NCBI RefSeq assembly: GCF_044324785.1
Contig: NZ_CP172127.1
DNA from: Escherichia coli
GTDB taxonomy: Bacteria > Pseudomonadota > Gammaproteobacteria > Enterobacterales > Enterobacteriaceae
Length of the DNA stretch: 64,000 bases
Reading direction: 5' to 3' (one strand)
The translations under genes were made by a program, and so were the position numbers. The notes under the pieces were generated by a model. The model was not told the origin of the DNA and did no database searches. It saw nothing but the letters and a program-made list of their open reading frames with translations. Below are positions 3,870-29,405 of the stretch, piece by piece; positions within the stretch are counted from its first letter, which is position 1, and each line of letters begins with the position of its first letter.

Positions 3870-5150
3870 ATGCCGGAAGAGAAACTACAGACGCTTTCAT
3901 TGCAGGTCATTAACGGCAGTGAGCTGGAAAGCGGGCGGGCGGCGCGCTGTCTGTTCACGCAGCAGGGACATGTCGGCCATGGCCCCGAATGCCACTGGTC
4001 GGTACAGGATCGTCAGCAGAGCATTCCGGCTCAGGCTTTTACCGTTATCCTGCACGATGGCACATTTTGTCTGCGCCCGCAGACGGCACAACTGTGGCTG
4101 AACCAGGCAAAAGTCACAGCAATATCAGACCTGATACAGCTGCGCCAGGGCGATGAGATCCAGATAGGGCGTCTGATGGTGAGGGTTCATCTGAACCGGG
4201 GAGATATCCCCCATTACGATGAGGAAATGGCCACTCCCGAAACCATCGTCACCAATCGCGATATGCTCACGGATACCCTGCTGTCAACGGAGGGTGCGCC
4301 ACACTATCCGGGAATGACTCACCGGCATCAGCTTGCAGACACCGTGGTAAACGGTTTTTCTGCCGATCCACTCCAGGCACTTCAGTCCGAAAGCCTGATT
4401 ACCACGGGCGATCCGCTTTCAGGCATTGCGGCTGTCCGGCCATCGGCACCGCTGTCCGATCCGGCAAGTAATGGGGGGATCAATACTCCGTTTATGGATC
4501 TGCCGCCCATTTATGCCAGCCCCGGCGATCGTAATGATGACTTCTCTGTGGCAGAAATGGCGCAACGCCACCTTGCGGTCACCCCCTTACTGCGCGGTCT
4601 CGGCGGCTCGCTTACCGTGAGCAATTCTGACGATGCGGATGATTTTCTGGAAGAGGCCGGACGCACGTTACAGGCCGCAATAAAAGGTCTGCTCGATTTG
4701 CAGCAACAGCGTAACAGCCTCTCAGACAAACATTTGCGCCCGCTGGAAGATAACCCGCTGCGCCTGAACATGGATTACGCCACCGCGCTCGACGTGATGT
4801 TTGCCGAAGGTAAAAGTCCGGTACATCTGGCGGCTCCCGCCGCTGTCAGTGAAAGCCTGCGTAATGTCCGCCACCACGAAGAAGCTAACCGGGCAGCGAT
4901 TGTGGAGTCACTTCGTGTCCTGCTTGACGCTTTCTCACCACAAAATCTGCTGCGCCGCTTTGTGCAGTACCGCCGCAGCCATGAACTGCGCCAGCCGCTG
5001 GATGATGCCGGAGCATGGCAAATGTACAGCCATTATTACGAAGAACTGGCCTCCGATCGCCAGCAGGGGTTTGAGATGCTGTTTAACGAGGTCTACGCCC
5101 AGGTCTATGACCGGGTGCTTCGTGAAAAACAGCGGGAGCCGGAAGCATGA
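3870..5150 (+). CDS. tagH: T6SS FHA-domain protein TagH (Fha/VasC-like)
   Basis: N-terminal region has an FHA-like pattern; GGAG lies just upstream of the ATG at 3870 (longest ORF starts at 3849); C-terminal region is Ser/Pro/Asp-rich. Confidence 0.8.
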   Translation: MPEEKLQTLSLQVINGSELESGRAARCLFTQQGHVGHGPECHWSVQDRQQSIPAQAFTVILHDGTFCLRPQTAQLWLNQAKVTAISDLIQLRQGDEIQIGRLMVRVHLNRGDIPHYDEEMATPETIVTNRDMLTDTLLSTEGAPHYPGMTHRHQLADTVVNGFSADPLQALQSESLITTGDPLSGIAAVRPSAPLSDPASNGGINTPFMDLPPIYASPGDRNDDFSVAEMAQRHLAVTPLLRGLGGSLTVSNSDDADDFLEEAGRTLQAAIKGLLDLQQQRNSLSDKHLRPLEDNPLRLNMDYATALDVMFAEGKSPVHLAAPAAVSESLRNVRHHEEANRAAIVESLRVLLDAFSPQNLLRRFVQYRRSHELRQPLDDAGAWQMYSHYYEELASDRQQGFEMLFNEVYAQVYDRVLREKQREPEA

Positions 5151-5671
5151 ACAGGAAGGCGTTTCTGGCCTGCGTGCTGATGTGCGTCATATTAACCGGC
5201 TGCGAAACGGCGAAAAAAATCAGCGAGGTGATCAAAAACCCGGATATCCAGGTCGGGAGCCTGAAGGAGCAACCTTCGGAAATAACCGTCACCCTGCTGA
5301 CCGAACCGGACACCAATACCAATGCGGAGGGTGAATCAGCCGCCGTGGATGTGCAACTGGTGTACCTGACTGACGACTCAAAATTGCTGGCAGCCGACTA
5401 TGACCAGATAGCCAGTACGCCGCTACCGGATGTGTTGGGTAAAAACTATATCGACCACCAGGATTTCAACCTGTTGCCGGACACCATCAAAACCCTGCCG
5501 CCGGTAAAGCTGGATGAGAAAACGCAGTTTATTGGTGTCGTGGCCTATTTCTCCGATGACCAGGCCACTGAATGGAAACAAATCGAGACGGTGGAAGGAA
5601 CCGGCCACCATTACCGCCTGCTGGTGCATGTACGTCAAAGCAGCATCGAAATGAAAAAAGAGGATGAATAA
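5147..5671 (+). CDS. tssJ: T6SS outer-membrane lipoprotein TssJ
   Basis: 174 aa; signal peptide with lipobox (MNRKAFLACVLMCVILTGC); ATGA overlap with tagH stop. Confidence 0.88.
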   Translation: MNRKAFLACVLMCVILTGCETAKKISEVIKNPDIQVGSLKEQPSEITVTLLTEPDTNTNAEGESAAVDVQLVYLTDDSKLLAADYDQIASTPLPDVLGKNYIDHQDFNLLPDTIKTLPPVKLDEKTQFIGVVAYFSDDQATEWKQIETVEGTGHHYRLLVHVRQSSIEMKKEDE

Positions 5672-5673
5672 TT

Positions 5674-7005
5674 ATGGCAACCACCCGCAACAAGGTGATG
5701 TGGCAGGAAGGGATGCTGATGCGCCCACACCATTTCCAGCAACAGCAGCGTTACAACGACTACCTGGATAACCAGCGCTTCCGGGCCATGAATGATTTAT
5801 CCTGGGGATTTACCGAACTCACCCTCAACAATGAACTGCTGGCGCAGGGTAAGATCATGATTGACAGCGCGTCAGGCACACTGCCCGACGGCACCGTCTT
5901 TTCTATCCCCGACCAGGACGCACTGCCCGATCCGCTGCACCCGCAACATTTTCCGGACGAAAGAAGCCGCAATATCTACCTCGCTCTGCCGGTCGCCAGT
6001 GATGTGAGAAATGAAATCAGCGACGGGCGGCGAATCGGGCGTTACCGGCTGAATTATGCCGATGTCCGGGATCTGCATTCAGAAGAAGGTGACGCGCGAA
6101 CATTGACGCTGGGTCAACTGACGCCGCGCATTATGAGCGGTGCAGAAGATATGAGCGCCTATATTACGCTCCCGCTTTGCCGTATCAGCGATCGCCATGC
6201 CGACGGCTCACTGACGCTGGATGACGATTTTATCCCCTCCTGCCAGAATATTCAGGTCAGTAAGAAACTGCGTGTTTATCTCAAAGAGGTACAGGGGGCC
6301 ATTGGCGGACGGGCAAGCGATCTGGCAAACCGCATTGGCTCTCCGGCGCAGAGCGGCATCGCGGATGTGGCGGAATTTATGATGTTGCAGTTACTTAACC
6401 GTAACCAGACCCGGTTTACCCATCGCGCTCGTCGATCCCAGCTCCACCCGGAAGATTTCTACCTTGATCTTGCCGGGTTGCTGGGTGAACTGATGACCTT
6501 TACCGAGCCGTCGCGCCTGCCCTGCCCGCTTGATGTGTATGATCATCATGACCTGACCAAAACATTTAAAACGCTGTTACCGGAAGTCAAACGGGCGCTG
6601 CATACCGTACTGTCGCCAAGAGCCGTCAATCTGCCGCTACATCTGCGTGACGGTATCTGGCAGGCCGATATTCATGACACAGAACTGCTGCAATCTGCCA
6701 CCTTTGTCCTGGCCGTGGCGGCAAACATGCCGGTCGATCAGATCCAGCGCCAGTTTATCCAGCAGTCGAAAATTTCCTCGCCGGAAAAAATCCGCAATAT
6801 GGTCAGTGTGCAGATACCCGGCATTCCATTGCGTGCCCTGATGGTGGCTCCCCGCCAGCTTCCTTACCATTCCGGGTTCAGCTATTTCGAACTCGACAAG
6901 AGCGGACAGGCCTGGACAGAAATGGCTGCCGCCGGGGCCGTTGCACTGCATGTATCCGGCAGTTTCCCGGATCTGAACATGCAACTGTGGGCGATAAGAG
7001 GGTAA
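5674..7005 (+). CDS. tssK: T6SS baseplate/membrane-complex connector TssK
   Basis: 443 aa; N-terminus VMWQEGMLMRPHHFQQQQRY resembles the conserved TssK N-terminus; position after tssJ. Confidence 0.88.
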   Translation: MATTRNKVMWQEGMLMRPHHFQQQQRYNDYLDNQRFRAMNDLSWGFTELTLNNELLAQGKIMIDSASGTLPDGTVFSIPDQDALPDPLHPQHFPDERSRNIYLALPVASDVRNEISDGRRIGRYRLNYADVRDLHSEEGDARTLTLGQLTPRIMSGAEDMSAYITLPLCRISDRHADGSLTLDDDFIPSCQNIQVSKKLRVYLKEVQGAIGGRASDLANRIGSPAQSGIADVAEFMMLQLLNRNQTRFTHRARRSQLHPEDFYLDLAGLLGELMTFTEPSRLPCPLDVYDHHDLTKTFKTLLPEVKRALHTVLSPRAVNLPLHLRDGIWQADIHDTELLQSATFVLAVAANMPVDQIQRQFIQQSKISSPEKIRNMVSVQIPGIPLRALMVAPRQLPYHSGFSYFELDKSGQAWTEMAAAGAVALHVSGSFPDLNMQLWAIRG

Positions 7006-17652: not shown

Positions 17653-18132
17653 ATGGCGAATTTAATTTATTTAACACTAAATGGTGATAATCAAGGGCTC
17701 ATTTCAAGTGGTTGTTCATCACAACCATCCATTGGAAATAAAGCTCAAACAGCACACATTGATCAAATTATGATTTATGAATTCATGCATGGATTAAATC
17801 GAGATCAAAACGTCAACCATCATCATTTGACAATAAAAAAACCTATAGATAAAGCATCACCCTTATTAGGTAAAGCAATTTGCGACAATGAATTATTGAC
17901 ATGTGATTTTTCCTTTTATCGTACAAATAAATTTGGAATTAATGAACTGTACTATAAAATCAAATTAACTGGAGCAAAGATAAGCGACATTCATGTCTCT
18001 ATATCACATATTGTTGTTGATAACAGCGTTCAACCCGAAGAGTCAGTTTCTTTCAGTTATGAGTCAATTATATGGGAGCATTGTTCCGCTGGCACTAGTG
18101 CATACAGTTTATGGGAAGATCGTCTTCTTTAA
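17653..18132 (+). CDS. hcp: Hcp (TssD) family protein, divergent and AT-rich
   Basis: 159 aa; N-terminal IYLTLNGDNQG and C-terminal SVSFSYESIIWEH fit the Hcp pattern; AAGGAG RBS 8 nt upstream; much lower GC than the upstream core. Confidence 0.8.
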   Translation: MANLIYLTLNGDNQGLISSGCSSQPSIGNKAQTAHIDQIMIYEFMHGLNRDQNVNHHHLTIKKPIDKASPLLGKAICDNELLTCDFSFYRTNKFGINELYYKIKLTGAKISDIHVSISHIVVDNSVQPEESVSFSYESIIWEHCSAGTSAYSLWEDRLL

Positions 18133-18152
18133 AAATATCTGGGATTATTATA

Positions 18153-19049
18153 ATGGCTAACAATATTTTACACTCTTCAACATCAGACAGTGAAAGCAAA
18201 AATACAAGCACTGACAGTACGTTATTTAATGAAAAATTCCCATTTCGATTAAGGCAAGATTTCGCATCAAGAATAACAGAAGATGAAAGTGATTTTTTTA
18301 AATGGAAAAAAATAAGAGAGTTGGCAATTGTGAGCAATCATAAAGAATGGAATAAATATGACTTATTAATTTCAAAATCTGTTAATGAAATCAACATTCA
18401 TTTGTCCAGCACTCCATACTTTCAGCCGTTGGATTGGTATATAATAAAAGCCATGCTCTGGACTGAAAACGATGCGGCAAATACTTCTCAGTGGAATGGT
18501 TATCCATTACAAATTGGTCGTTTTCGGAAAGATAAAGCGATGCCTGCTTTAATCTCTGGTGAAAAATCCACAGCCCTTGTTACCCCACCACAATGGAGAA
18601 ACAAAGCATTCAATGGGTTAAAAGATCCAGAAAGAAATTACTGGGCAAAAGAACAAATAACTGGCTCTCCAGAAGAGAATGTCAAAGCAGCAATTACTTA
18701 CTTAATGATGAAACTTTCTAATACAAAGGAAGAATCAACTATCGATCAATATGACTCAACTCTATATAGCGCCATTGTCCAAAAAGGCGATTTGGCTGAC
18801 AACATCAGAAAAGAGAGAAAAACGACCATACCTAACTTAACGAAAAACAACCCTGGAAAAAATCTCGATAAAATACACCCGGGAGATATTTTATATTATC
18901 AAAAAGCATCCATGAAAGTAATAATTACTGGATGGAAACCTATCACAATAAAAAATGTAGCGATGAATTATAATGGTGGTGGAGATCCCAAGTATGCAAT
19001 AAAACTTCAGTTCGTTTATACATTGCTCACAAAAAACAGAGTGTTATGA
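18153..19049 (+). CDS. Hypothetical protein; candidate T6SS effector (possible peptidoglycan glycosidase)
   Basis: 298 aa from ATG 18153 (alternative ATG 18111); no signal peptide, no Cys; AT-rich; directly downstream of hcp and coupled to a downstream signal-peptide protein. E…GxxQ…AxxYL motif spacing weakly resembles GH23-type lysozymes. Confidence 0.6.
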   Translation: MANNILHSSTSDSESKNTSTDSTLFNEKFPFRLRQDFASRITEDESDFFKWKKIRELAIVSNHKEWNKYDLLISKSVNEINIHLSSTPYFQPLDWYIIKAMLWTENDAANTSQWNGYPLQIGRFRKDKAMPALISGEKSTALVTPPQWRNKAFNGLKDPERNYWAKEQITGSPEENVKAAITYLMMKLSNTKEESTIDQYDSTLYSAIVQKGDLADNIRKERKTTIPNLTKNNPGKNLDKIHPGDILYYQKASMKVIITGWKPITIKNVAMNYNGGGDPKYAIKLQFVYTLLTKNRVL

Positions 19050-19501
19050 GAATGGGAAAAATAACAATTATTCTACTGCTTACATTCTCATGTACAAAAG
19101 GTCTGGCATTTGACATTTCCATGTCTAAAGAATGTAGTGGCGTTGATGAACTTGAATTTGTTGATTGTGTTAAAAACTCATTTATTATGAGCACTATTAC
19201 ACTTAAAAAAGCAGAAGCAAATATAAAAGAGAAAATTAAAAAATGGAATAACGATGAGGACGAAGCAATAAGAAAAGAAGCAGTTATTTCTTTAAAAAGA
19301 CTAGAATCTTCTAATCGGGAATTTATACGTTACAGATTTGCTCAATGCTCTTTTGCTCTAACCTGGGGGGCCAGAGTAGGACGCCTGGCATTCTCTCGAC
19401 TATATCCATGCTATACTGAGTTAAACAAAATAAGAGCCATGCAACTAAACAATGCTTACATTTCAGATTTTCAAAATCCAGATGAGATATCCAGCAAATG
19501 A
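19046..19501 (+). CDS. Small periplasmic protein, candidate immunity protein (DUF1311/LprI-like pattern)
   Basis: 151 aa; ATGA overlap with the upstream gene; cleavable signal peptide (ITIILLLTFSCTKGLA); four Cys and a KKW…RYRFAQC…G…YPCYTELNKIR pattern reminiscent of LprI-type lysozyme inhibitors. Confidence 0.6.
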   Translation: MRMGKITIILLLTFSCTKGLAFDISMSKECSGVDELEFVDCVKNSFIMSTITLKKAEANIKEKIKKWNNDEDEAIRKEAVISLKRLESSNREFIRYRFAQCSFALTWGARVGRLAFSRLYPCYTELNKIRAMQLNNAYISDFQNPDEISSK

Positions 19502-19854
19502 TTATTATAAAATTAAGATTAACATTACTATTTATACTGGCCACAATTACATATTCAGTACAATCAGACGAATTCGATGATCAAACCACTTACACGCAAT
19601 ACCGTTATTTTTCCACAGCCATACCAGAAGATATACGTAGATTTATGTTCTACGTAGATTTGTGCTTTGTAGATTTAGCATTCGATATCGAAACTGACTC
19701 AATGACAGCTAAAAATGATATTATTAATGAATGTACCCCATTAAAAGAAAGAAACAAAACATTAAAAGAAAAATATAAAAAAGATGAAGAGATAATAGCA
19801 ATTCTTTCCATTGCAGATGATACCATTTTAATTTATGAAGAATTAAAAAAATAA
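19498..19854 (+). CDS. Small secreted/membrane protein, possible second immunity or orphan immunity gene
   Basis: 118 aa; ATGA overlap with the previous gene; N-terminal hydrophobic signal (LRLTLLFILATITYSVQS); AT-rich; Lys/Glu-rich C-terminus. Confidence 0.5.
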   Translation: MIIIKLRLTLLFILATITYSVQSDEFDDQTTYTQYRYFSTAIPEDIRRFMFYVDLCFVDLAFDIETDSMTAKNDIINECTPLKERNKTLKEKYKKDEEIIAILSIADDTILIYEELKK

Positions 19855-19978
19855 CTCACATGCAATTCACTGGCAATATATATTATAATTTTATAAAAAA
19901 TCATATTTACATTATAGAAATACTCAGCTCCTGTTTGCTGCCCGCCCTAAACTACAGGCGGCAGCATAACAATAACGA

Positions 19979-20779
19979 TTACTGGAATCGACTCACCAAG
20001 TCTTTCACCATTGATACATATGTTTTTTGTTTCAAATTAAACAGTTGCACTTCCGTAACATGGTCATTTGATAGTTCTTTATTGCTCGTTTTTGTTATTC
20101 CAGCCGGCGGAAAAATTACTCTCGATTCATAATTCACCGGCGACCAGGTAGCCCACTCACCTGTTGCCACATCCACCAGCGTGAAACGTACCAGGTAGCG
20201 CAGGGAGATAGCGTCAGTGAGTTTTTCATTTTTATAGTCGGACCATACTGTTGATTTCAGCACAGAGTCATATTTTCCTGTCTGCAACGTATCATGGTAA
20301 ACAATAATCGCTTTCTGATGCCCTTTCGCAGCCACAAAACGCAATGCCTGCATCCAGTTCATATTTTCAGCACTGGCAACATCCTCGTTCTCATTTTTAT
20401 CTTTATTTTTGTTACAAGTCAGAGGCTTTTGCCTGTCCGGGATACCAGAGAATGTGGAAACAGTATAATATTTTCTCATCTCCTCCTGCATAATGGTCTC
20501 CGGTGCGCGACTGCCAGACTGAACAAGTATTACAGGAGAACTGAGGGGCACACGAAACTCATCTCCTTCAAGCGCAGCTTGAATATCCTCCTCGGATACA
20601 GCCAGAGTGGTTTCATTACCGAATAAATCTTTGTCTGTCAGTTGTGGGGGAGTGTTTTTATTAATATTACTTTGTGTAACTTGAGCTTTTTTCTTTTTTT
20701 CATCAATAGGAGATTCAGAGGCACATCCTGCAAGCAGCGAGAATAACACACATATGCAACAAACCTTTTTTGAATTCAT
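19979..20779 (-). CDS. yafT: Lipoprotein YafT
   Basis: 266 aa; lipobox (LLAGC); lies next to tRNA-Asp aspV as yafT does in E. coli. Confidence 0.8.
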
Positions 20780-21043
20780 AATCGGACACTCCCTCGCCTG
20801 TCATAATGATTAGAATATTTAGCACTGATAACGGACTCTAATTATATACCCCACTTAAATAATAACAAACAAAATCAACATGAAATATACATTCATTTAA
20901 TCAATATAAAATTATTCTCTAAAAATATATTTAAGTTGAATGGTTCGATATCATTATTGAATTTTAATAAATGAGACAACAAGCGAGAGTTACGCACTTA
21001 CGCCAGAGTAAAATCATTGAACAGAGAAATAGCGGGATTTAAA

Positions 21044-21080
21044 TGCAAAAAAACCGCAAAATTAAAAATCTTGCGGTTCT
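21044..21080 (-). terminator. Rho-independent terminator downstream of aspV
   Basis: Stem AACCGCAA/TTGCGGTT followed by a T-run on the minus strand. Confidence 0.6.
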
Positions 21081-21105
21081 CTGAACTCATTTTCATGAGT
21101 GAATT

Positions 21106-21182
21106 TGGCGGAACGGACGGGACTCGAACCCGCGACCCCCTGCGTGACAGGCAGGTATTCTAACCGACTGAACTACCGCTCC
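21106..21182 (-). tRNA. aspV: tRNA-Asp (GUC)
   Basis: Reverse complement matches the canonical E. coli tRNA-Asp over 77 nt (GGAGCGGTAGTTCAGTCGGTTAGAATACCTGCCTGTCACGCAGGGGGTCGCGGGTTCGAGTCCCGTCCGTTCCGCCA). Confidence 0.95.
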
Positions 21183-21314
21183 GCGTTGTGTTCCGTTGGG
21201 AACGAGGCGAATATTACGGATTGCCTCACCCTTCGTCAACGGTTTTTCTCATCTTTTGAATCGTTTGCTGCAAAAATCGCCCAAGTCGCTATTTTTAGCG
21301 CCTTTTACAGGTAT

Positions 21315-22046
21315 TTATGCCCGCCAGAGACAGCTTCCGCCCTTTTTCTGCACCAGATCGAGACGGGCTTCATGTGCTGCAAGCTCTTCATCTGTCGCAA
21401 AAACAACGCGTAACTTACTTGCCTGACGCACAATGCGCTGAATTGTTGTTTCATCTTGTTGCTGTTGCGTCTCTCCTTCCATCGCAAAAGCCATCGACGT
21501 TTGCCCACCAGTCATCGCCAGATAAACTTCCGCAAGGATCTGGGCATCGAGTAATGCCCCGTGCAACGTTCGTTTACTGTTATCTATTTCGTAGCGGGCA
21601 CATAACGCATCGAGGCTGTTGCGCTTACCGGGAAACATTTTCCTCGCCACCGCAAGGCTATCGGTGACCTTACAGAAGGTATTGGTCTTCGGAATATCGC
21701 GCTTAAGCAACGAAAACTCGTAGTCCATAAAGCCGATATCGAACGCTGCGTTATGGATAACGAGCTCCGCGCCGCGGATATAGTCCATGAACTCATCGGC
21801 AACCTCGGCAAACGTGGGCTTATCGAGCAAAAACTCATCGGCAATACCATGTACGCCAAAGGCTTCCGGATCCACCAGCCGATCGGGTTTGAGATAAACA
21901 TGGAAGTTATTGCCCGTCAGACGACGGTTCACCACCTCAACGGCACCAATCTCAATGATCTTGTGGCCTTCATAGTGCGCACCAATCTGGTTCATACCGG
22001 TAGTTTCGGTATCGAGAACGATCTGGCGTGTAATTGCAGTGCTCAT
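21315..22046 (-). CDS. dnaQ: DNA polymerase III epsilon subunit (3'-5' proofreading exonuclease)
   Basis: [20 protein letters not shown]… N-terminus; 243 aa; divergent from rnhA. Confidence 0.95.
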
Positions 22047-22110
22047 AGCGGTCATTTATGTCAGACTTGTCGTTTTACAGTTCGATTCAATTACAGGAAG
22101 TCTACCAGAG

Positions 22111-22578
22111 ATGCTTAAACAGGTAGAAATTTTCACCGATGGTTCGTGTCTGGGCAATCCTGGACCTGGGGGTTACGGCGCTATTTTACGCTATCGCGGA
22201 CGCGAGAAAACCTTTAGCGCAGGCTACACCCGCACCACCAACAACCGTATGGAGTTGATGGCCGCTATTGTCGCGCTGGAGGCGTTAAAAGAACATTGCG
22301 AAGTCATTTTGAGTACCGACAGCCAGTATGTCCGCCAGGGTATCACCCAGTGGATCCATAACTGGAAAAAACGTGGCTGGAAAACAGCAGACAAAAAACC
22401 AGTAAAAAATGTCGATCTCTGGCAACGTCTTGATGCTGCGTTGGGGCAGCATCAAATCAAATGGGAATGGGTTAAAGGCCATGCCGGACACCCGGAAAAC
22501 GAACGTTGCGATGAACTGGCTCGTGCCGCAGCGATGAATCCCACACTGGAAGATACGGGCTATCAAGTCGAAGTTTAA
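22111..22578 (+). CDS. rnhA: Ribonuclease HI
   Basis: [23 protein letters not shown]…; 155 aa from ATG 22111 (longest ORF starts at 22039). Confidence 0.95.
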
Positions 22579-29328: not shown

Positions 29329-29405
29329 TGGCGGAACGGACGGGACTCGAACCCGCGACCCCCTGCGTGACAGGCAGGTATTCTAACCGACTGAACTACC
29401 GCTCC
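29329..29405 (-). tRNA. aspU: tRNA-Asp (GUC), distal tRNA of rrnH
   Basis: 77 nt identical to the aspV copy at 21106-21182. Confidence 0.95.

Follow-up and report, generated by a model that had tools for sequence, protein, structure and literature searches.

The variable region of the Escherichia coli aspV T6SS island includes yafT and reaches the 3' end of the tRNA gene

The interval 19855-21105 of the window analysed here (the whole stretch of 64,000 nucleotides from E. coli) is very probably the arm, on the aspV side, of the long-known T6SS island of E. coli, which fills the gap between yafV and aspV, has its right boundary at the 3' end of aspV, carries at 17575-20124 a cargo exchanged by homologous recombination, and lacks an integrase. 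The real edge of the island is the 3' end of aspV (21100-21106) and not position 19855, where the initial annotation had set an island junction. The gene yafT and the AT-rich spacer next to it are part of the variable region, because in genomes with an empty site homology to the window starts only at 21100-21106.

The window begins within tssC and contains both aspV and dnaQ, with Pfam matches for Hcp and VasL, while the yafV end of the island was seen in genome N3, which is 99.2% identical. The annotation of N3 lists the full core of the secretion system, namely tssB, C, E, F, G, J, K, L (icmH), H, A, M, VasL, Hcp, VgrG and Rhs. The final plus-strand ORF of the cassette stops at 19854, and yafT is convergent with the cassette ORFs. 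The cassette end, yafT, the AT-rich spacer and aspV, all named in the initial annotation, are real, and an Rfam scan of 19500-21400 returned the tRNA only, plus a chance-level RAGATH-11 match (E 0.45). The features, with computed coordinates, are as follows.

~17575-20124: low-GC module (~34%) delimited by sliding identity and GC, comprising the last ~50 nt of the VasL gene, hcp, the effector, two putative immunity genes, the hairpin between the convergent genes and the final 146 nt of yafT
17653-18132, plus strand: hcp (TssD), an allele tied to the cassette (Pfam T6SS_HCP, 1.8e-23; TIGR03344, 1e-58)
18153-19049, plus strand: putative T6SS effector cleaving peptidoglycan glycan strands, with an SLT-like lytic transglycosylase fold and a LysM domain, 298 aa
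19046-19501, plus strand: putative periplasmic immunity protein, LprI/DUF1311-like, 151 aa (weak Pfam LprI match, E 0.0021, below the cut-off)
19498-19854, plus strand: ORF of 118 aa in translation, with a signal-like N-terminus, a second putative immunity protein or a protein of unknown role, final gene of the cassette
19855-19978: convergent intergenic region between the last cassette ORF and yafT
19937-19965: GC-rich imperfect hairpin GCTGCCCGCC / GGCGGCAGC, 13 nt downstream of the yafT stop, with 9 bp, one bulge and a 10-nt loop
19979-20779, minus strand: yafT, ORF of 266 aa, YafT-family lipoprotein (PF25851), lipobox LAGC with invariant Cys19
19979-20124, minus strand: variable 3' segment of yafT, inherited together with the cassette; K-12, A2, the B2 type and E. 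albertii are homologous to the window from 20100-20125 onwards
20780-21105: AT-rich spacer between yafT and aspV, 326 nt, 29.8% GC, conserved right arm of the variable region
20841-20868, minus strand: promoter-like site of yafT, TTGTTA-16-TATAAT (10/12 match)
21048-21082, minus strand: aspV intrinsic terminator, stem AACCGCAA/UUGCGGUU followed by U7 (folding, covariation)
21100-21106: actual right edge of the variable region, coinciding with the 3' end of aspV; homology starts at 21100 in C9 and at 21106 in PBP8
21106-21182, minus strand: aspV, tRNA-Asp(GTC) (ARAGORN; Rfam tRNA, 67.7 bits)

The position of the edge emerges from the comparison of strain classes. An empty arrangement, with yafV ~98 bp from aspV and neither yafT nor the T6SS, is found in 757 of 5426 complete E. 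coli genomes; in the empty-site strain C9 the yafV stop lies 98 bp from aspV. Strain PBP8 instead carries a different island with mobile-element genes at aspV. Homology breaks among the strain classes examined fall at 20125, at 20628 and 21025 (both IS1) and at 21100-21106, and in no class is there one at 19855. It had been proposed that strains lacking the T6SS, if identical to the window up to 17626, would displace the boundary; the comparison gave the opposite outcome, as homology is present only from 20125, within yafT, in K-12-type strains and from 21100 in the empty type. Position 17626 does mark a real feature, the left edge (~17575) of the swappable low-GC module. The spacer can be aligned across E. 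coli phylogroups and E. albertii and is missing in empty-site genomes. Moreover, yafT occurs in 4321 of the 5426 genomes (80%), and only 364 have the 3' end of yafT and the intergenic region seen in the window.

The empty allele has its own spacer of 108 bp, and the last 13 nt of its yafV differ from those of the occupied allele; the difference between the two states is therefore a replacement and not a clean insertion. When the island and its ends were compared with this spacer as possible sources, no match was found. In Pseudocitrobacter, the 3' flank of aspV is homologous to about 50 nt of the spacer, which include a terminator hairpin carrying compensatory changes. Deletions have also shaped the locus: K-12, with the order yafV-ISAs1 remnant-truncated yafU-ykfM-yafT-aspV, is a T6SS deletion scar, and deletions bounded by IS1 are present in W21 and 2-C14-1. 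The T6SS core occupying the same slot is ~75% identical in B2 E. coli and 92% identical in E. albertii, with 91-96% identity on the dnaQ side; judged from these alignments, the contrast of ~75% and 92% at one slot would count as allelic replacement.

Since E. albertii and E. whittamii both have aspV followed by yafT and the T6SS, Escherichia may originally have had the occupied state, and the 757 genomes with an empty site could then be secondary. In its strong form, this account holds that yafT, the spacer and the T6SS were ancestral at aspV, that the empty allele is a derived loss and that only deletion scars, and no insertion boundary, are to be seen. The two species share the order aspV-yafT-Hcp-VasL-TssM, identity to the window is ~91-92% for the E. 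albertii T6SS and for its flanks alike, an agreement suggestive of vertical descent, and several deletion derivatives are independent of each other. We nevertheless consider it unlikely: the spacer of the empty allele is unmatched in the island, its Pseudocitrobacter-like stretch looks like an old orthologous flank and not a deletion joint, and the 3' ends of yafV differ between alleles.

Of 28 species loci that could be evaluated across other genera, 22 have yafT convergent with Hcp/VasL, at a distance of at most 1.1 kb downstream of a tRNA gene whose identity depends on the genus (Asp, Ser-GGA or Phe). The gene is not strictly bound to the island, because the remaining 6 of the 28 loci have yafT without an adjacent T6SS. 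In the single Salmonella yafT locus sampled, which spans 16.8 kb, the gene adjoins an Rhs/VgrG cluster and no tRNA is present.

In some of the published genome papers, yafT is regarded as backbone beside the island. According to such a placement, yafT and the spacer belong to the core genome, the island ends at 19854/19855, and 19855-21105 is an island-backbone junction. The high frequency of yafT and its retention in K-12, which has no T6SS, speak for this placement. It is rendered very improbable by the 757 genomes in which yafV abuts aspV with yafT, spacer and T6SS all missing, by the strain classes examined, none of which breaks at 19855, and by the other genera, where yafT accompanies the T6SS end next to tRNA genes of different kinds. 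The preferred reading remains that of an island arm ending at aspV.

As the initial annotation had observed, the window contains no integrase, IS or tRNA-derived repeat. The annotation of N3 agrees, with no integrase or transposase between tssB and aspV and no integrase between yafV and aspV. When the window and the whole N3 island were searched for repeats of the aspV 3' end with 15-, 16- and 24-mers, allowing up to 2-3 mismatches, the only matches were aspV itself and the identical aspU, which lies at 29329 in the window. Of the partial tRNA-Asp repeat and the integrase remnants, both suggested as worth looking for upstream, the N3 island shows no repeat and, in its annotation, no integrase. 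At its far end, N3 has the order yafV-ISEc1 pseudogene-two hypothetical genes-Rhs-VgrG-Hcp. The earlier suggestion that mobility genes lie at the far boundary is correct insofar as a mobile-element gene is present there, outside the window, but this is an IS (an ISEc1/ISAs1 pseudogene) and not an integrase. Because 41 nt separate the yafV stop from the start of the multicopy IS match, the island-type 3' end of yafV was not formed by the ISEc1 terminus. Likewise, the description of an old, stabilised insertion holds in that the region is old, without integrase or direct repeats, and shared at aspV-yafT with E. albertii and E. whittamii; as to insertion, the alleles point to replacement.

Among the hallmarks of integrase-type tRNA islands, the boundary at the tRNA 3' end and the existence of empty sites were found, while an adjacent integrase and a distal repeat were not. 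The region resembles P4/CP4-type islands in its location at a tRNA 3' end, its atypical base composition and its variable presence among strains, and differs from them in having no tRNA-adjacent integrase, no repeat of the tRNA 3' end and a history of replacement in place of clean insertion. Islands of this kind, adjacent to a tRNA gene and devoid of integrase or direct repeats, are well documented. From the breakpoints, we infer that the whole T6SS region would be gained, lost and replaced through homologous recombination within the genes on either side and through deletions mediated by IS elements (ISEc1, IS1), and that an integrase would not be involved. It is hardly credible that the region is a still-mobile integrative element with aspV as attachment site and an integrase located past the window near yafV. 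In favour of this reading, the break in homology falls at the 3' end of the tRNA, related yafT-T6SS units of other genera adjoin tRNA genes for Asp, Ser and Phe, and other strains have islands with integrase and IS genes at the same end of aspV (the PBP8-type island being a complex mosaic with a truncated integrase ~20 kb in). Against it, N3 has neither the integrase nor the repeat, and the loci examined leave no space for an integrase between the tRNA and yafT (326 nt here).

Within the island arm, the best-defined unit is the module between the VasL gene and yafT. In sliding comparisons with strain A2 and E. albertii, identity is ~0.9 up to ~17570, where it drops to ~0.65; beyond ~17964 it is at noise level, and at 20125 it jumps back to 1.0. 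GC content decreases from 56% to 33-35%, and position 19855 falls inside this low-GC segment. The version of the cassette seen here, of O157:H7 type, occurs in 364 of the 5426 genomes, and over their full length the cassette and the yafT region are 97.2% and 95.4% identical, respectively, to O157:H7 genomes. An alternative cassette, with a YafU-like effector and YkfM, is found in 3089 genomes, and its hcp shares ~65% nucleotide identity with that of the window. In B2-type strains, yafT directly follows hcp. These patterns suggest that 17575-20124 is cargo which would be swapped between lineages by homologous recombination, with the right-hand crossover within yafT, 48 codons before its end, and with the conserved 5' four-fifths of yafT plus the spacer serving as right-hand anchor.

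The putative effector has a lysozyme/SLT-like fold with a conserved catalytic-type Glu. Neither it nor the 118-aa ORF, which is hypothetical in the N3 annotation, gave a significant match in Pfam and NCBIfam, and PDB sequence searches with the three single proteins returned nothing. The 151-aa protein is named 'lysozyme inhibitor LprI family' or 'DUF1311' in RefSeq and has a hydrophobic, signal-like N-terminus in translation. The export and immunity context seen consists only of adjacency to hcp and signal-peptide-like neighbours. The arrangement recalls the Tge/Tgi and Tse3/Tsi3 pairs in having a cassette effector beside hcp, a lysozyme/lytic-transglycosylase fold with a catalytic-type Glu, and then small signal-peptide proteins, one of them LprI/DUF1311-like. 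It differs in that the putative effector has an embedded LysM domain, and the likeness is one of fold, with no named Tge family assigned by sequence.

A palindrome at about 19930-19960 had been proposed to terminate both the cassette and yafT. The structure is present, at 19937-19965, and is stable (dG -19 to -25 kcal/mol, z ~-2.9, with 0-3 of 200 shuffles folding equally well). Downstream of yafT, K-12 and E. albertii have hairpins with a similar CUGCCGCC/GGCGGCAG stem, Buttiauxella and E. fergusonii have other GC hairpins, and B2 E. coli and Hafnia have only weak ones. In comparison with intrinsic terminators, the GC-rich stem-loop is there and the U-tract is absent on both strands, the stem being followed by AUAACAAUAACG on the plus strand and AAACAGGAGCUG on the minus strand. 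A terminator scan of 19700-21400 found no terminator-like site. Termination of both transcripts is thus unproven, because the palindrome has no U-tract and the scan found none. The probable role of the hairpin is to stabilise or end the transcript of yafT and, perhaps, that of the cassette as well.

The spacer carries two further signals, the promoter-like site of yafT and the terminator of aspV. A GGTATATAAT-like -10 element sits 45-60 nt upstream of yafT in most genera examined. The aspV terminator, which is preceded by a small hairpin at 21085-21100, folds with dG -23 kcal/mol (z -5.6, 0 of 200 shuffles) and shows a compensatory C-G to U-A change in E. albertii; the simple terminator scan missed it, probably because its core stem has too few G-C pairs for the rule applied. 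As for the protein, a 95%-identical homologue (P0001) and all listed homologues carry the precomputed PF25851 assignment, together with LAGC and the invariant C19. A direct Pfam and NCBIfam scan of YafT gave no match, the Pfam set scanned being one without PF25851, and the confidence of its structure model is low (pLDDT 60). The protein is probably a lipoprotein of the outer membrane. More tentatively, YafT may form the conserved end, on the tRNA side, of a family of Enterobacterales T6SS islands that settled beside Asp, Ser-GGA and Phe tRNAs in different genera, and it may be functionally tied to the T6SS, for example as an outer-membrane lipoprotein which assists firing or protects against it, with its 3' end as cargo crossover site and K-12 yafU and ykfM as effector-immunity relics; no literature linking ykfM or yafU to the T6SS was found.

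The island itself is already described, as the EHEC aspV island, LF82 PAI I and APEC T6SS2. The 37-kb aspV T6SS island of EHEC strain EDL933 (PMC5363993), LF82 PAI I at aspV (PMC2941450), GI-16/T6SS2 of APEC, adjoining yafT (PMC4232414), and 'T6SS/1 subtype i1' of mastitis strains (PMC5422975) occupy the same slot between aspV/dnaQ and yafV and have the same order, tssB to tssM followed by VasL and Hcp, with a divergent Hcp-VgrG-Rhs arm. There is no essential difference from the region studied here, except that these descriptions put the boundary outside yafT or leave it undefined, whereas yafT and the spacer are here inside the variable segment. In Salmonella, aspV has been called a hot spot for the acquisition of different T6SSs, and SPI-20 is reported to have no obvious flanking direct repeats (PMC2907695). 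Like the island described here, SPI-6 and SPI-20 are T6SS clusters at aspV, and the ~75%-divergent T6SS alleles in the E. coli slot are a parallel to them; genus, island content and T6SS lineages differ.

The understanding of T6SS islands is left unchanged by these results, whose value lies in annotation and in cassette typing (364 genomes of O157 type and 3089 of YafU/YkfM type). The boundaries of the aspV island belong at the 3' end of the tRNA and at the last codons of yafV, and not outside yafT. In K-12, yafT, ykfM, yafU and yafF are to be read as the scar of a lost T6SS. Furthermore, the interval from hcp to yafT is a defined slot for the exchange of effector-immunity cargo, useful for typing the T6SS armament of E. 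coli.

The window is a piece of the E. coli chromosome that runs opposite to the K-12 map, and its best match, strain N3, is 99.2% identical over 16000-22500. To the left, a T6SS cluster extending past the window start comprises, according to the N3 annotation, tssC, E, F, G, tagH, tssJ, K, L, H, vasI, tssA, tssM and VasL; the last ends at 17626, and GC drops from 56% to 33-35% beyond that point. To the right of aspV lie dnaQ, rnhA, yafS, gloB and mltD. The features concerned are as follows.

17653-18132, plus strand: hcp
18111-19049 or 18153-19049, plus strand: ORF of 312 or 298 aa
19046-19501, plus strand: ORF of 151 aa
19498-19854, plus strand: ORF of 118 aa
19855-19978, no strand: gap of 124 nt
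19979-20779, minus strand: yafT
20780-21105, no strand: yafT-aspV spacer, 326 nt, 29.8% GC
21106-21182, minus strand: tRNA-Asp(GTC) gene aspV (ARAGORN)
29329-29405: second, identical tRNA-Asp copy, aspU, at the end of rrnH (ARAGORN)

The cassette end, yafT, the spacer and aspV are real, as judged by ORFs, ARAGORN and GC content, and lie where the initial annotation had placed them; overall, its observation was confirmed in part and its interpretation supported in part. The two tRNA genes form 77-nt direct repeats, 100% identical and 8.2 kb apart, which enclose dnaQ-rnhA-yafS-gloB-mltD-yafE-yafD-yafC-dkgB and are a potential recombination substrate. The N3 annotation marks both tssA and the VasL gene as carrying frameshifts (locus L001, 15310-16724 and 20278-21688), and an internal stop interrupts the N3 effector. 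The ORFs of the window are unbroken where N3 is disrupted (11242-12723 and 16187-17626), and the T6SS may therefore be intact here though decayed in its nearest sequenced relative.

The right-hand edge of the variable segment was located by comparing 16000-22500 with 5426 complete E. coli genomes, which yielded discrete homology-break classes, each inspected. An island junction had been proposed at 19855, but none of the five classes breaks there; breaks fall at 20125, 20628, 21025, 21100 and 21106. Among strains lacking the T6SS, homology with K-12 resumes at 20125, within yafT, and with C9, which carries the empty site, at 21100, with 98 bp from the yafV stop to aspV; the right-hand boundary is the tRNA 3' end. 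The empty-junction probe was fully covered in 757 genomes. A2, like most T6SS-positive strains, matches the window in the T6SS core and throughout the sequence from 20125 on, and has a different cassette between hcp and yafT. Part or all of the region is missing through IS1-bounded deletions in W21 (homology from 21025) and 2-C14-1 (from 20628), while PBP8, with a break exactly at 21106, carries another island, a mosaic that includes toxin-antitoxin genes, IS genes and integrase fragments. This large island (L015, 1-49901) abuts the aspV 3' end and includes CbtA/YeeU toxin-antitoxin genes, fragments of IS66, IS110 and IS630, an integrase fragment of 200 aa, an iron-uptake cluster and genes for sugar utilisation; the tRNA is adjoined by its toxin-antitoxin end, not by an integrase. 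Since yafT and the spacer, present in 4321 of the 5426 genomes, are missing along with the T6SS in the empty class, they are part of the variable segment.

On the other side, the point at which empty and occupied alleles part is 13 nt short of the yafV stop. Between yafV and aspV, the empty allele carries 108 bp peculiar to it, with no match to the island. The ~50 nt of this stretch closest to the tRNA, with the terminator hairpin among them, show homology to the Pseudocitrobacter aspV flank (L004 11894-12001 against L021 5742-5800), with compensatory stem changes, and in Pseudocitrobacter yafT and a T6SS follow that flank. The occupied Escherichia allele has a different aspV terminator, common to E. 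coli, E. albertii and E. whittamii. In the window this is an intrinsic terminator of textbook type at 21048-21082 on the minus strand (stem AACCGCAA/UUGCGGUU followed by U7; dG -23, z -5.6); in E. albertii a compensatory change turns C-G into U-A. Given the separate spacers and terminators, the two alleles differ by replacement, and both look old.

The position 19855 itself belongs to a swappable cargo module. In a sliding-window comparison with A2 and E. albertii, identity is about 0.9 up to about 17570, within the final 50 nt of the VasL gene, and about 0.65 from there. It stays near ~0.65 throughout hcp, whose alleles are therefore homologous yet diverged, becomes noise past about 17964 and returns abruptly to 1.0 at 20125. 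Residues 1-218 of YafT are nearly identical to those of K-12 YafT and the last 48 only loosely similar. The window-type module occurs in 364 of 5426 genomes, most of which are O157:H7 (97.2% identity); N3 is among them with 99.8%. A YafU-like/YkfM module is found in 3089 genomes and is complete in 2581; the A2-type cassette codes for YkfM and for a protein of 309 aa whose C-terminal part has transmembrane segments. In B2-type strains hcp is followed directly by yafT, and E. albertii has four other small ORFs in the module position.

The K-12 order is yafV, an ISAs1 remnant (yafF), an N-terminally truncated hypothetical gene (yafU), ykfM, yafT and aspV. There, yafU is the C-terminal remnant of the 309-aa transmembrane protein which comes after hcp in T6SS-positive strains, and the adjacent ykfM is a multi-TM gene (K-12 locus L002, 6612-7733, yafF/yafU/ykfM; locus L003, 5165-6583). 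The deletion junction joins the interior of ISEc1 to the interior of the effector gene and so fits an IS-associated deletion. Together, yafU and ykfM resemble the decayed remains of a T6SS effector-immunity pair, truncated by a deletion that begins in the ISAs1 element; no paper tying either gene to the T6SS was found in the open-access literature.

The window cassette (18153-19854) encodes an SLT/lysozyme-fold protein and then two small signal-peptide proteins, one of them DUF1311/LprI-like; among the 5426 complete genomes it is confined to 364. The representative library yielded 364 homologues of the 298-aa protein, with the family consensus WTES..MQIG..YNGxGD and an invariant Glu at residue 105; LysM was matched in 34 of 44 homologues, and SLT weakly in three of the 44. 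Its AF2 model is confident (pLDDT 87), and the LysM domain is embedded in the protein. The following gene (19046-19501) has weak LprI/DUF1311 likeness and a signal-like N-terminus. From this we infer a putative peptidoglycan glycan-cleaving T6SS effector with periplasmic immunity.

A palindrome had been suggested to terminate both cassette and yafT. Its arms, GCTGCCCGCC (19937-19946) and GGCGGCAGC (19957-19965), pair over 9 bp, leaving one C bulged, around a loop of 10 nt; the hairpin is 13 nt past the yafT stop. The hairpin is stable (dG -19 kcal/mol on the plus strand and about -25 kcal/mol on the minus strand; z about -2.9, equalled by 0-3 of 200 shuffles), but neither strand has an adjacent U-tract and a terminator scan of 19700-21400 reported zero sites. 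A hairpin with a similar stem (CUGCCGCC/GGCGGCAG) follows yafT in K-12 and E. albertii, unrelated GC hairpins in Buttiauxella and E. fergusonii, and only weak hairpins in B2 E. coli and Hafnia. The element is read here as a conserved yafT 3'-end structure, a putative stabiliser or a weak or factor-dependent terminator, with a bidirectional role possible.

Beyond E. coli, one genome per species was scanned with the YafT alignment, and the loci were then searched by tblastn and ARAGORN. YafT homologues (precomputed PF25851:YafT) share 43-81% identity across the sampled Enterobacterales loci. Of 28 evaluable loci, 22 have Hcp and VasL, usually with TssM, convergent with yafT and about 0.1-5 kb downstream of it; in six, yafT stands without a T6SS, so that the linkage is strong, not absolute. 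A same-strand tRNA gene lies ≤1.1 kb upstream of yafT in at least 12 loci and varies by genus (species-representative loci L017-L045, positions about 4800-6000): tRNA-Asp in Escherichia, Pseudocitrobacter, Superficieibacter and Hafnia (there as the distal tRNA of an rrn operon that neighbours clpB), tRNA-Ser-GGA in Citrobacter werkmanii, Enterobacter asburiae, Phytobacter and Yokenella, and tRNA-Phe in Lelliottia and Trabulsiella. With ~85 tRNA genes per 5-Mb genome, adjacency within 1 kb would by chance involve ~1-2% of genes, a rough, uncomputed estimate. In Atlantibacter, yafT comes after tRNA-Asn with the T6SS absent. Most genera have a GGTATATAAT-like -10 element 45-60 nt ahead of yafT, in agreement with the predicted yafT promoter at 20868-20841. 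C. werkmanii, E. asburiae, Phytobacter and Yokenella share a tandem duplication of about 185 bp in the tRNA-Ser(GGA)-yafT spacer (loci L027 5194-5580, L029, L034 and L022).

The far side of the island in N3 reads yafV, an ISAs1-family pseudogene, two hypothetical genes, Rhs core, VgrG, Hcp and tssB, with ISEc1 starting 41 nt after the yafV stop, as set by multicopy matches. No integrase is annotated between yafV and aspV in N3, and searches for the aspV 3' end with 15-24-mers (2-3 mismatches allowed) matched only aspV and aspU. The lack of an integrase and of a tRNA 3'-end repeat, described in the initial annotation, thus holds, and upstream, between yafV and aspV in N3, no partial repeat was found and no integrase is annotated; of the mobility genes suspected at the far boundary, an IS is there, but no integrase.

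The core itself varies as well. In a B2 strain (L016 1-5548 against window 12589-17957) it is only about 75% identical to that of the window, with 96% on the dnaQ side; deeply diverged T6SS lineages therefore fill one yafV-aspV slot within one species, which points to allelic replacement of whole T6SSs, and on these identities the yafT/spacer/aspV side appears as the conserved flank of the slot. The corresponding values for E. albertii are 92% (T6SS) and 91% (flank). In E. whittamii, a T6SS occupies the same aspV slot, with a core at about 75% nucleotide identity to the window's, as in B2 E. coli.

Boundaries, allele classes and frequencies, the lack of integrase and repeats, the far-end IS and the synteny in other genera are observed directly. 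Upon them, a model may be proposed in which the region would be gained, lost and exchanged by homologous recombination in conserved flanking and internal segments (yafV, the VasL 3' end, the 5' four-fifths of yafT, aspV/dnaQ) and would be eroded by ISEc1- and IS1-associated deletions. An original tRNA-directed integration is possible, with no present signature in its favour.

A T6SS island at aspV is already known in substance, since the literature describes a 37-kb aspV-associated T6SS island in EHEC EDL933 (PMC5363993), PAI I of LF82 inserted at tRNA AspV (PMC2941450) and, in Salmonella, aspV as a hot spot for acquiring different T6SSs, with SPI-20 lacking obvious direct repeats (PMC2907695). 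To this are added the exact boundary, a cargo slot whose crossover falls within yafT, and the interpretation of yafU and ykfM in K-12 as remnants of a T6SS.
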